DNA of 59,275 bases, filler included, from Dugesia japonica (lineage: Eukaryota): NCBI GenBank assembly GCA_001938525.1. It is 5 parts of 5 records of this genome, joined end to end, with 100 filler letters (N's around TTAATTAATTAA, not from the genome) between each part and the next. Parts side by side here need not be neighbours in the genome. Positions count along the whole stretch, not along the records: positions 10,666 to 18,994 come from MQRL01632344.1; positions 19,095 to 27,790 come from MQRL01434277.1; positions 27,891 to 38,745 come from MQRL01578695.1; positions 38,846 to 59,275 come from MQRL01628381.1; 1 more part is not named here. One strand, 5' to 3'. The position numbers and the translations under genes are program-made. Below, in pieces: positions 18,958 to 59,275 of the stretch. Within the stretch, counting starts at the first letter, position 1; each line of letters opens with the position of its first letter. The notes under the pieces were generated by a model that was not told the origin of the DNA, searched no databases, and saw only the letters and a program-made list of their open reading frames with translations.

Positions 18958-18994
18958 AGTAGATAGATATGAGCGCACTGGCATCGACCCCCCC
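18958..18994 (+). mobile_element. Maverick-type terminus (left end) running into a gap
   Basis: AGTAGATAGATATGAGCGCACTGG followed by poly-C. Confidence 0.75.
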
Positions 18995-21185
18995 NNNNNN
19001 NNNNNNNNNNNNNNNNNNNNNNNNNNNNNNNNNNNNNNTTAATTAATTAANNNNNNNNNNNNNNNNNNNNNNNNNNNNNNNNNNNNNNNNNNNNCACGCA
19101 AGTTTAGGAGTAGATAGATTGTTACGCACTGTACTACCTCCCACACTGGAAAACTGGTATAAAAATTTACTGGTTTGACCTTTGACCTCGTTTAAAAATT
19201 TGTATAAAGAAATACATGCGCGGCAATTCAAATGTTTGTAGTGACTTTCCCCGCGATACTTCGTCTTACAGGTACTGTTAAGTGCGTAATGACTTGACGG
19301 ATCTCATGGTGTAATTCCCGAGTCAATTAAACGTGACGGGGAAAGGTTATTAAGGATCAAAGAATAAAAACTTATTTTGATCAGATCAACTCGATCTTGG
19401 TATCATTCTAATGCAAATTAAAAAGTACTTATACATTGGCCTAAAGTACCTTGGTCATAGAATGCTTCATTCAAACCTGAACGACATTCAGGTAAGAATA
19501 AAGACTTTTTGACATTGAATTTAAAACGAGTAGATACATACTATTACGACTGGCATAGTATCGTTGGAATTGTAATGACCTGGCGGATCTCATGGTGCAA
19601 TCGTCGGTTCAATGAGTCATGGCGGTGAATAGTTATTAGGGATGTAAGATCTTTAACTCTCTAAGTTTTAATTTGTGATTGGATATATATATATATATAT
19701 ATATATATAATAAAATAATAATTTATACATAAAAATATTAGCACCATTGGAGTTAGCATAAAAAACTAACTGTACATTGTTTCATCGAAAATGAGTTTCC
19801 TCCTCGCCGATGAAGTGATCTAAAAATTTGGTTTTCACATTTAGACAGAAAATTAAAAAGTAAGATAGGAACACATCCATACAAAATTTATGAAAATGCT
19901 TCCTTTCCACTTTAAATGGCGGCTAAAGGTAAATATCAATTTTATAGCTCTAGGTCCACTTAAAATCATGTTTTATAGTCAAACTTGGTTATTATTAGAA
20001 TTGTAATGTGATGAAAAATACAATGGTCATGTTTTCAAAGTATTTTGACGAATAGATAGCGAGATATTCGACATTGAAATTTTAAATATGAAAAAAATGA
20101 ATAAATTATCTACTTACAAAGTGTAAATAGATAAAATTTATTTTAAAAAGATTATGAAAAGTTTTAAAATGAATTTATGTTGCATTTGTGTTGTAAATAT
20201 AATATTCAATCATAACTTATGGATTAGAACACGTACACACAATTCCTATTGATATCTATGTAATTTGAGACAGTTCTGTAATAATTGTCAATCTCTCTAT
20301 TTAATCTGAATTATTTCTATGTATTTTCTAATGGCATCTATGTAATTTTTGAGCTATTTCTTCCTATGTTTTACGTGGGAATTTGAAAAACTTTGTGGAT
20401 TTATGTATTTAGAAATGAATTCTATATCATTTTATAATCAATTTTTATGTAATTGTAATGTCACTTATGTAATTTTTGTGTTTTGTAACGACATCTATGC
20501 ATTTTCTAATAAATTTTAATGACATCTATTTATTACAATTGAAATATTTATGCAATATAACGTACAAAGGACAATTATGAAAATAATTTATTTAAAACAC
20601 ACTCATGTCTTTTATTACACACATAAGAATTCAATCAATATGTCTTCATCACTAATTTCTTTATCATTTATTTCCTTATGAGACTGCGTATCAATCATTT
20701 CATGATTAGTCATATCCTTATTGTAGGCGTATCAGGCATTATTTCATCAATAATGACATCATTTGGTTGAGTATCGCTCATATCATCATCTGTCGATGCA
20801 TCTATGTCAACTATTTCTACAGAATTTTCTTGAACTTCTGCATCATATACTATTAAATAAGTATTTAGTTTTATATTAGCTAGTATTATTACCTTGAAGA
20901 AATGAAATTATATAACTAATCAAATCATATATAATTGCGTCTAAGTTCATTATTAATCAGTTTTTAAATTTAAATTTTGTTTTTATCAGTCCTTTGTATA
21001 TTGCATCCGTAATACACAAGTATGACTCATCCTCTTTGTTGCATTCGTGTTGCAATGTTTTTGTTCTATTTGTATTCGTGTTACATAACTATGACTCATA
21101 CTCACTATGTTTTACAAATATTTAATTAATTTAAACCAATAACAATAGTAATATAAACAATTTACTAAATTATGAATAAATTAAA

Positions 21186-21833
21186 ATGAAGAAGTTAAGA
21201 AATGATGATGTTTATCAAATTGCTGGTTCAAGTGGTAGTGGTAAAATCTTGTTGGTATACAAATTATTGAAATCAAGCTGTGACCCGTGAAAATATTGTC
21301 AAAACCTTTGTCTTGGGCTATTTTGGGGTGCCAAATCAAACATTTTCAAATCCAAATTTTTAGAATACATATCGATATAAAGGTGCAGATGAGGAATATA
21401 AATTGACTCAATCAGAATTTTGTAATATAAAAATGAAAATTTGATAAACACTGGAGCAAGAGATTAAAATCAGGTGATGTAATTGTTGTCGATGATCTAT
21501 ACGAGAAAGCTAATAAGGAAAATGACTTTAACTGTTTAGTAACAAAAGAATTGTGGTGTGACTGTGATATTCATTACATAGAATCTCATTCATCAAGGAG
21601 GAAGCCATAGGACGCGTAATTTAAATGTACAATACTTGGTTATATTTAAAAATTTGAGAAATCTAACAGTTGTTGACTTTTTAGTAAGATACGCCTATCC
21701 TAATAACAGACAATTTCTTACTGAATCGTTCAATGATGCCACTGTAATCCCACATGTATATATTTTTCTCGACTTTACACAGCAATGTCCAAATGTACTT
21801 AAAGTGAGAAATGATATTTTCGACCAAAAATAA
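21186..21833 (+). pseudogene. Maverick packaging ATPase (A32/FtsK-like)
   Basis: Walker A IAGSSGSGK, Walker B VIVVDDL, RTRNLNVQYLVIFKN.R, PHVYIFLDFTQ..P..L.VR.DIF. Frameshifted. Confidence 0.92.
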
Positions 21834-56342: not shown

Positions 56343-58794
56343 TGTAGGTAAATAGTAGCGCAATAGATCACCCTTGCCCCTCCTCCTAGACAAGAAACTT
56401 TTATAACAAAGACAATGATTCATACCTATGACTCATTGATGACTGAAAAAAGACGATGACTCAGCATGATGACTCATTGATGACTAGAACAAAGACAAGG
56501 ACTCATCGTATTTTAGATTAAGAGTCATCGTTTTTATTGATCATAAGTCATAGTTTTTCTTAAAGTTATTTTCAAAGTCAGTTATCTATTACCCACGATT
56601 CTGATTGGTCAGTGATATAGTATCCATAATTCTGTATGGTAGACATTATTCAAAGGTTTAATGATGAGCCCCCTATAAAAAATTTTTTTAATTTTTTATT
56701 TATTTATTTTTTGTAAATTTTTTTTTAAAAATTTTTTTTACCAGTTCATCGTTTTTTTTAAGGTTATCCATTTGTATTTTTTTATCAAGGTCATCCAATA
56801 TTATGAGCACTACTACGTTTTCGAGTGTATTATTGCTTAGGTACCATGTAATATGTAAACAACAACCGTTTAATATATGGTTTTTGTATTAGTTGCATAG
56901 TTAACTGGTAATCATGTATTATAATGTTTTTGAGTGTTATACATATATAGCAAAATGAGTATATAAGGATTATGAGTGTATTATTTACATAGTAACCCTG
57001 TAATATAGGTTTTATGATTATATTATTTGAATAGTTACCTTGTATTATTTACATTGCAACCGTGTATTTAAGGGTTTATGAATGTATTATTTGCCTAGTT
57101 ACCTTGTGTTATTTACATATTAACCGTATATATTAGGGTTTATGAGTATATTATTTACATATTAACCGTGTGATTTAAGGTTTACGAGTGTAGTATTTGC
57201 ATAGTTACCTTGTATTATTTAAATATTAAACGTGTATTATTTACATATTAACCGTGTATTTAAAGTTTATGAGTGTATTATTTATCTAGTTACCTTGTAT
57301 TATTTACATAGTAACCGTGTATTTTAGGGTTTATAATTCTACTATTTACATATTAACTGTGTAATCAAAGGTTTACGAGTGTATTATTTGCATAGTTACC
57401 TTGTATTATTAACATAGCAACCATGTATTACATGGTTTATCATGTAAATATGGTTTATGAGTGTATATGATTTTAATATTTATAATGTAAAATTACTGTA
57501 TTAATACTTAATGTCTACTTGGTGTTATGTTTTTTACTGCAATAAATCATTATGAAAACATTAGTAATATTTAATTATATAACATTTTATATAACATAAA
57601 GAAAGACAAAATATAAATACATTTATTCAATGATAACAAATATATTCATTGTATTTATTCATTTCAGTCAGATGCTTCTCCTTGGCAACCAGAAAATTAA
57701 ACGTTTCACATCCATTACAGTTAAGTGCGCAAAATTCCGGCGACATATATATTATATATATGCATAATATAAAACCACAACGTAATATATAAATTATTTG
57801 AAATTTAAATATCTAAATTTAAATTAATATTTTTTCGTACTTGAATTGTAAACGTTTTGCATTCATGTTGCGAAGTTTCTAAATTATTTCAATCAAATCA
57901 AATAAATATGAAGTAATGTTATTCACATATCCTTGAAAATTCAACTTTTAAAGCGTTAGTATTACTAGTTTTTCTGTTGAGAACGCATTTATACATAAAG
58001 TGTCATATTTTATAAGTCGTATAGGAAATAACTCCGGTTCAAACCAGTAGCTGACTATTCTTGCTAATTTATACATATTTATTGAAACTCACATATTTAC
58101 AACAATTAATAGTGACTTTAATTGTAAATTTTTATATCGTAGTGGTTCAATTCATGCGGTTTCAATGGTTTCTAACAACCCATTATTCCACATTTTTATG
58201 ATCTAAAGTAAATAATTGTAAAGTTATCACTTTTGACTTAAAATTGACATGGTATGTGTATAAAAAAGCTCATTTTATTTGTTACTTTTGCATCACTTCA
58301 TCTCTGTAATTAATATTGGTAATCATAATTAATGAATTTAGACGAAAATTTATATGAAAATTTCTCACACTCATAAACTATATTCATTCATAAAATATTC
58401 ACTTTTAAGATTTTATATAGACTTAGGAGACGGTTACTCAGTAATTTTAAGATATATATGAAAACGTTACATAATTATAAATCATATACACTCACAATCC
58501 CTTATATATACATACAAATATTTACTTAGTTATTTATCAGTTATTTTTGAAATAATTTCCACACTCATACACCATATAAACTCGAAAAACCTATACTACA
58601 CAGTGTTTAAGTAAATAATACAATGCAAATATACAAATATTACACTCATAAACCCTATATTATAAGTACCTTCATAAGCCTTTTATTACACGTTTGATAT
58701 GTATATAATTTCTTAAAAAGTATTATATTTCATAAACCTTATATTTTTTGGTTGCTATGTAAGTATAACACTCATAGACATTATAATACATGAT
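56343..58794. mobile_element. Mini Maverick-type element: long inverted arms with tandem arrays around a ~0.8-kb cargo; right arm interrupted at 58795
   Basis: Terminus TGTAGGTAAATAGTAGCGCAATAGATCACCC; GTTTATGAGTGTATTATTTACATA arrays (56800-57470) mirrored by ACACTCATAAAC arrays (58365-58794); 56911-56952 is the near reverse complement of 58752-58794. Confidence 0.75.
57879..58326 (-). pseudogene. Decayed minimal TATA-binding-protein-like gene (about 148 codons, two frameshifts, several stops)
   Basis: MITNINYR...TLQLF..KCGIMGC...NLQLKSLLIVVNM*VSINMYKLARIVSYWFEPELFPIRLIKYDTLCINAFSTEKLVILTL*KLNFQGYVNNITSYL aligns by eye to both TBP repeats (YEPELFP..IFVSGKVVLTGAK..AFENIYPIL). Confidence 0.75.
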
Positions 58795-59275
58795 AGTAGT
58801 TGGATAGTGGCCGTAAAGAACAGCACACATTCAGCAAACCCCCCCCCCGCCCCCTATACGTAAATGGATTATGACATAACTGTTTTTAAATTTTTCTAAT
58901 GTATTTAGTTGGGAAAATTTTTCAGGCTTTTTAGTTGTGAATTGGCTCTGTGAGGTCGATGAGGTTGAATTTTGATTGGTTTTAAGTGGTTTTTGTCAAA
59001 ACCTTTCTCGGTGAGGTGGAATAAGATTGATTTTTGATTGGTTTAAGTGAATTTGGTTTGAAATTTTCTCGGTGAGGTCGAATTTGGTCAATTTTTGAAT
59101 GGTTCAGGTTAATTTGGTCAAATATTTCCTCGGGATTGGTTGGTTTGGGTAATTTTTGGGCGTTTTGGTCTAATGTTTTCTTTGGCATTGATGATTTTTA
59201 TTGATTTAGGTGAACTTGGTTGAAAGTTTTCTCGGTTAGGTTGAATATAGTCAATTTTTGATTGGTTCAGTTGAA
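58795..59275 (+). mobile_element. Maverick-type left terminus followed by ~60-bp tandem repeats rich in ATTGG
   Basis: AGTAGTTGGATAGTGGCC..poly-C; repeated TTTCTCGGTGAGGTCGAATTTGGTCAATTTTTGATTGGTT. Confidence 0.75.

Follow-up and report, generated by a model that had tools for sequence, protein, structure and literature searches.

In the accessible text of two reports, Mavericks/Polintons ("adintoviruses") are described as having AG-type end motifs with a presumed role in protein priming, terminal inverted repeats (TIRs) some 50-1500 bp long and target-site duplications (TSDs) of 6 bp, and as being mostly degraded (PMC8097293, PMC10748475); among vertebrate Maverick loci the degraded share is given as 96% (PMC8097293). 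Butterfly polintons lacking polB remain mobile according to the available part of one preprint (10.1101/2025.02.07.637071), and repeated Polinton insertion at one locus, with TIR remnants left behind, is described for C. elegans in that of another (10.1101/2024.01.15.575659). Here, a 59,275-nt stretch of the Dugesia japonica assembly GCA_001938525.1, made of five parts of five records joined end to end (hereafter the window), was analysed, in which a first-pass annotation had proposed a swarm of mini-elements with shared AGTAG termini and different cargo. Maverick-type ends of several subterminal families were indeed recovered by profile scan, family links and relics, and at least one short non-autonomous unit with a perfect 6-bp TSD exists; the idea of cargo-bearing mini-elements forming a satellite or multipartite system, however, was not supported, as no intact cargo open reading frame (ORF) was found in the units and the TBP-like relic comes from a gene native to Mavericks. 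The locus probably represents ends from several Maverick families, nested and truncated, of which some lost internal sequence and were probably mobilised in trans.

The features shared with described Mavericks are AG ends, a 6-bp TSD, an integrase with rve and chromo domains, a protein-primed family B polymerase (pPolB), an ATPase, a minor capsid protein, PW, PZ, a protease and a mostly degraded state, so far as the accessible text of PMC8097293 and PMC10748475 goes. The ends mostly read AGTAG(A/G)T here, as opposed to (AGT)2 or (AG)3; moreover, the window holds no intact copy, its main relic lacks a major capsid gene, and the clade concerned often has a TBP-like gene. Butterfly polintons without polB are similar in having kept TIRs, lost enzymes and apparently moved in trans (available part of 10.1101/2025.02.07.637071), whereas the non-autonomous unit found here is only 1.1 kb long, nearly all palindrome, and free of transposable-element cargo. 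Transpovirons are likewise small linear TIR elements derived from the Polinton lineage via gene loss, but in the accessible text they are about 7 kb long, encode a helicase of the SF1 type and depend on mimiviruses as carriers (PMC5499653), and nothing of the kind is seen here. The short units of the window read as members of the known Maverick/Polinton kind, and no novel satellite or virus in several parts is revealed by them.

Termini and their subterminal families

A 24-column profile built from 14 termini (eight left-facing and six right-facing) recovered exactly those 14 at 21-40 bits, the next match lying at 12.3 bits, and 100 block shuffles of the window, used as the null, gave 0.05 matches at ≥18 bits (<0.1 expected). 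Fifteen AGTAG coordinates had originally been listed, and all bear the motif at the base given except 30056, which has no terminus (<6 bits). The terminus pattern of the first-pass annotation gave five matches at ≤3 mismatches, against 0.00 expected, and ten at ≤5. With leave-one-out scoring, 12 of the 14 termini stood above chance (≤0.11 expected), and 54875 (9.9 bits) and 58795 (11.1 bits) were marginal on the motif alone; these two were accepted because they have subterminal sequence in common with 30022 and 49066, respectively. Conservation of the motif is highest across the first ~20 bases. Most ends read AGTAG(A/G)T (13 of 14 begin with A), and ~24 bp are common to all, with C-runs beside them. 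All 14 termini lie within 18958-59275 and none in the first 18957 bases (p ~0.005 under uniform placement).

At least five subterminal families had been claimed. The links 30022/54875 (score 59, null maximum 29) and 39829/56343 (score 111, null maximum 33) were confirmed, and 49066/58795 weakly so (score 41, null maximum 32). The supposed 19109/30056 pair involves a copy without a terminus, 30083-31726 matching the region behind 19109 at 70-79% across three blocks, and 42624 and 45544 are similar only deeper inside (72.5% over 255 bp), their bases 26-280 scoring 25 with a null maximum of 47. In each of the three linked families the right end lies upstream of the left end and the outer flanks are unrelated; the back-to-back ends and unrelated flanks therefore indicate separate insertions, at least two per family, and not paired ends. 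That one inverted duplication gave rise to all three pairs was rejected, since the order is unmirrored and the flanks are unrelated. Nesting is evident where the PZ relic is cut exactly at the 54875 end, and likewise where the 58795 insertion interrupts the inverted arm belonging to the 56343 unit.

On this reading, several diverged Maverick/Polinton families would have integrated here again and again, in part inside each other, before decaying. The outermost ~24 bp may act in cis as the end needed by the protein-primed polymerase and the integrase, with each family's own TIR behind it, which would explain why these bases are similar in all families; as a shared origin or attachment site, they would point to one superfamily and not to a satellite system. 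In adenovirus inverted terminal repeats, the terminal origin is kept while the rest drifts.

Recurrent short motifs were also observed near the ends. Nine of the 14 TGA(G/C)TCA sites in the window sit in sequence subterminal to 39213, 39829 and 56343 (39064-39762, 56429-56476), and AAGGTCA/TGACCTT sites recur behind 19109, 30022, 42624 and 54875. Both are putative host transcription-factor sites within TIRs. A 31-bp tandem array with its downstream sequence (53412-53945) recurs at 39836-40132, in the outer flank of the 39829 end.

A short palindromic unit with a target-site duplication

One of the 24 correctly oriented end pairs, 45544/46658, is flanked by a perfect 6-bp TSD (TTAGAA on both sides), for which the chance of a random match is ~0.0009 per pair. 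This unit is clearly a non-autonomous Maverick derivative that has kept both ends. It has AG...CT-type ends, the right one altered at the second base only, and long TIRs whose arm cores are identical at 348 of 365 positions (95%); it matches none of the relatives' proteins and holds no enzyme gene. Its arm recurs at 25751-25909 with a local score of 86, against 49 for the best of 223 non-overlapping windows, and the palindrome was tied to Mavericks because this recurrence lies upstream of a decayed pPolB. The simplest reading would be that the arm is TIR sequence of a pPolB-bearing element. The palindrome itself probably arose by fold-back within one TIR, an event that may have occurred during strand-displacement replication, and it looks younger than the core relic, given arms that are 95% identical as against 10 stops in the relic ATPase match. 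Apart from it, the window holds one diverged half copy, 41864-42624.

Short, gene-less, palindromic and TSD-bounded forms with diverged versions are familiar from miniature inverted-repeat and fold-back elements of cut-and-paste transposons, which the unit resembles in all these respects; the ends and arm here, in contrast, come from a protein-primed Maverick. No ~1-kb palindromic Maverick derivative was found in the literature, a weak negative as the founding papers, Repbase and preprint supplements were outside its scope. Short non-autonomous Polinton "N" families are reportedly present in Repbase and in the 2006 founding paper.

Hidden partners for the other 12 ends, sought across the window by TSD and degenerate end motif, were not found, so that the lack of 6-bp TSDs at paired ends, which the first-pass annotation had itself named as evidence against its proposal, applies to 12 of the 14 ends. 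The ends 18958, 37898, 39213, 39829 and 58795 reach a gap or the window end in <500 bp and are partnerless, and 19109, 35115, 54875 and 56343 extend 2.9-8.7 kb gap-free. Between 19109 and 30022, 26 of 36 terminal bases are alike, with neither subterminal similarity nor a TSD, and this pair does not bound the core genes as one element by matching TIRs and a 6-bp TSD. Internally deleted copies that kept both ends would have been integrated in trans by the enzymes of an intact Maverick elsewhere, and the remaining ends would have been orphaned through nesting, deletion or gaps in the assembly.

Maverick relics and the TBP-like gene

The decayed core, including pPolB, spans 21153-27723 and was mapped with proteins of related loci. 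A query made from the integrase relic, with stops read as X, had 87 relatives at E≤0.001 (best 5e-91), and the related loci used throughout are the best 80 of 138 metagenome loci fetched with the integrase alignment. The rve matches lie in broken pieces below the Pfam cut-off, and the retroviral-like integrase expected of a Maverick is present. The ATPase, protease and minor-capsid relics match ORFs of the relatives, in which the ATPase and protease are Pox_A32 and Peptidase_C5 by Pfam. Pfam confirmed the integrase, ATPase, protease and TBP only; the labels PZ, PW and minor and major capsid, which have no Pfam match, are assigned from gene order and typical features, and so are putative. In two intact related Maverick loci, L007 and L012, genes for PolB, integrase and ATPase are accompanied by those for both capsid proteins; near the end of L007, a ubiquitin-conjugating (E2) ORF was also noted (L007:225-719; Pfam UQ_con, 1.7e-12). 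The pPolB relic matches the L007 PolB with an E value of 1e-57, its catalytic half being absent at the gap, and is oriented like the integrase, opposite to the arrangement in L007 and L012, suggesting a composite origin or an inversion for the main relic. In relatives, the major capsid gene lies between PW and protease; a profile from 19 relatives' ORFs found no match to it in the window, where only 103 bp separate the PW and protease matches, and its absence from the main relic is read as a deletion. In total, the window holds 14 ends but one integrase, and the coding relics beyond the main one amount to 1,034 bp. Searches with the integrase alignment in the viral contig collection found no relative, a search with the PolB fragment gave no match, and a self-tblastx of the window returned mostly noise.

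The cargo claimed for the mini-elements was found in part. A TBP-like relic does lie at 57885-58333, but this copy is broken by stops and a frame change, and the gene occurs in intact relatives. TBP-like ORFs are present in six of the 80 related loci, and in three of the 11 with ≥1.5 kb upstream of the ATPase; Pfam TBP matches reach 5e-18 in L007 and 2e-17 in L012, and the ORFs of these two loci have 611 relatives at E≤0.001 (50% cluster representatives). Because it lies upstream of the ATPase in intact relatives, the gene is native to this Maverick clade and not captured host DNA. TBP homologues are named in the figure legends of a report on MELD viruses, which thus similarly have a TBP-like accessory gene in a Polinton-type genome, but, in the text available, in non-animal hosts (10.1101/697771), whereas the gene here belongs near the ATPase of an integrase-plus-pPolB clade and the copy in the window is broken. 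The unit 56343-58794, in which TIR-type arms enclose the TBP-like relic, is a probable internal-deletion derivative. A second TBP-like candidate, picked by eye at 48.1-48.7 kb, was rejected: it had no Pfam or profile match and was equalled in 20 of 100 shuffles.

The small spliced genes also claimed as cargo are possible: near 30022, a spliced model of 149 codons is stop-free, being one choice among many intron combinations and made without a control. A Pfam scan of 297 of the 339 stop-free frames of ≥38 aa, together with three shorter or overlapping ones and excluding low-complexity, palindrome and repeat frames, gave no match at the curated cut-off. The longest ATG-initiated ORF was within the shuffled range in eight of nine units, the ninth lying in the low-complexity palindrome. 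By these Pfam and ORF-length tests, no unit holds an intact identified cargo ORF, and no cargo is present twice in the window.

Table 1. Positions in the window of the termini, units and Maverick relics
Feature	Coordinates	Strand	Remarks
Left-facing terminus with C-run	18958..18994	+	enters scaffold gap after 37 bp; abuts upstream end of decayed Gypsy
Left-facing terminus and subterminal region common with 30083-31726	19109..20201	+	TIR match to 30022 ends at ~36 bp
Decayed core genes of a Maverick: ATPase, PZ, integrase (rve, chromo), minor capsid, PW, protease	21153..25262	+	stops and frame changes throughout
Palindrome-arm remnant, 159 bp, without terminus	25751..25909	+	upstream of pPolB relic
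pPolB relic, N-terminal half, broken	26418..27723	+	residues 209-639 of 1298-aa L007 protein; stops just before scaffold gap
Candidate small spliced gene, family unassigned	29112..29657	+	near 30022 end; stop-free only with a weak splice acceptor
Right-facing terminus, family of 54875	29882..30022	-	gap between it and PolB relic
Second copy of 19109 subterminal region, without terminus	30083..31726	+	listed earlier as 30056
Orphan left-facing terminus	35115..35138	+	
Degenerate left-facing terminus	37898..37921	+	~460 bp from minor-capsid relic
Second minor-capsid gene, broken 5' part	38361..38729	-	
Right-facing terminus	39190..39213	-	gap 368 bp inward
Right-facing terminus, family of 56343, TGA(G/C)TCA-rich	39649..39829	-	gap 280 bp inward; outer flank resembles 53653-53945
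One arm and centre of diverged kin of 45544 palindrome	41864..42624	-	other arm missing
Complete non-autonomous palindromic element 45544-46658 (1,115 bp) with TTAGAA TSDs	45538..46664		no recognised gene
Right-facing terminus, weak kin of 58795	48842..49066	-	
PZ relic of another Maverick	54659..54874	-	cut at outer edge of 54875 terminus
Left-facing terminus, family of 30022	54875..55060	+	
56343 unit, gap-free: terminus with repeat-rich arm, then the TBP-like relic and part of an inverted arm	56343..58794	+	cut by 58795 insertion
Broken TBP-like gene	57885..58333	-	homologous to native TBP-like ORFs of L007/L012; E 5e-20 and 1.6e-11, two frames
Left-facing terminus inside inverted arm of 56343 unit	58795..58937	+	continues to window end

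The window is AT-rich (27% GC) and its assembly fragmented, with 33 runs of N, four of them 100-base spacer gaps. Of 12 public sequencing runs listed, seven contain part of 47630-56800 (share 0.18-0.34, three studies), which carries no weight as evidence. Its first 18.6 kb hold a piece of the NIP7 gene and decayed ORFs that by eye read as Gypsy-like; the ~40 kb from 18958 onwards are likely a transposon graveyard in a gappy assembly. A 224-bp direct repeat (99%) across a 50-N gap at 38063-38560 is most likely an assembly overlap artefact. Broken frames at 32000-32900 (-) resemble by eye a hAT transposase of the GTF2IRD2/Charlie type, with no Pfam match. A stop-free 163-aa frame of unassigned family at 44412-44900 (-) has a short match to 10039-10146 and a Gypsy-like segment nearby, and a long frame with one stop and no Pfam match, 42621-43271 (+), lies directly outside the 42624 end. 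An apparently intact two-exon gene at 49427-50384 (+), its first part cysteine-rich, is not inside any end pair; its 197-aa frame has Atlas look-alikes at 0.92-0.93 (DUF4092, TCAF_N; few shared features) and no Pfam match, and it is probably a host gene, a lead only.

Competing explanations and implications

Plain decay with assembly collapse, in which nearly all ends would derive from full-length Mavericks whose bodies were lost by deletion after insertion or lie in gaps and the palindrome would be the sole non-autonomous copy, is rather unlikely. It would fit the many N runs, the gap reached by 18958 after 37 bp and the 12 ends without a TSD partner; however, 56343-58794 is free of gaps and has inverted arms around a single Maverick gene, 42624 belongs to another palindrome of that family, itself diverged, and four ends run for kilobases without meeting a gap. 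Helper-dependent satellites, with discrete mini-element families that keep selected cargo (TBP-like and small spliced genes) and rely on Mavericks for replication and perhaps packaging, are improbable. Although the ends are dense and diverse, with five subterminal or internal families each at two places in 40 kb, and one unit retains just the TBP-like gene while a stop-free spliced model lies near 30022, the TBP-like copy is broken and native to autonomous elements, no cargo is seen twice, and the ORF-length and Pfam tests given above found nothing beyond shuffled range outside the low-complexity palindrome and nothing at cut-off. The related idea that abundant Maverick-dependent families (palindromes, TIR-TBP-TIR units) are protein-primed defective or satellite DNAs, some keeping a working TBP-like gene by which transcription of the helper is tuned or disturbed, is a long shot.

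A multipartite Maverick, its genes split over segments sharing the terminus, is scarcely credible: the main relic does lack a major capsid gene, and minor-capsid, PZ and TBP-like relics lie on separate pieces, but these duplicate genes of the main relic instead of complementing them, all are broken, no major capsid segment was found in the window, and the close relatives are single molecules. An origin of the ends from a different DDE superfamily, or by chance, is highly improbable. In the 80 related loci and two contig collections, no intact Maverick showed this terminus, yet the motif is far above chance, the combination of AG ends and a 6-bp TSD fits Mavericks as described in the accessible text of PMC8097293, and the palindrome arm recurs beside pPolB; Ginger elements have TGTNR termini in the accessible text of PMC2836005, which are not found here, where nearly all ends start with A.

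Several points nevertheless weigh against nested and partly internally deleted Maverick ends as the explanation. None of the 80 related loci extends to a terminus, and no intact Maverick was observed to bear the 24-bp motif: exact terminus patterns gave no match in the viral contig and genome contig collections, and the profile gave five matches at ≥12 bits on the 80 loci, with 3.8 expected by chance. Within the window, the motif is tied to Maverick genes via relics only. The five partnerless ends that run into a gap or the window end could belong to full-length elements, and no TSD can be read for the 56343 unit because its second arm is cut. Roles for the C-runs and repeated subterminal motifs are putative, and the scope is one locus, which gives no copy number. 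As for generality, the accessible text of a report on the anole genome describes no non-autonomous Polintons there (PMC3014272), which counts against such derivatives being widespread.

As a gene-less unit with a clean TSD, the 1.1-kb palindrome caps the cis sequence needed for Maverick integration, and the ~24-bp motif of many diverged ends is a candidate minimal origin or attachment site. To our knowledge, such a site has not been defined experimentally for Mavericks. Should the short units prove to be families of high copy number whose cargo is under selection, an endogenous animal virus would have satellites in them, a far more interesting case. The presence of a TBP-like gene in the integrase-plus-pPolB clade suggests that these elements may bring part of their own transcription control with them.

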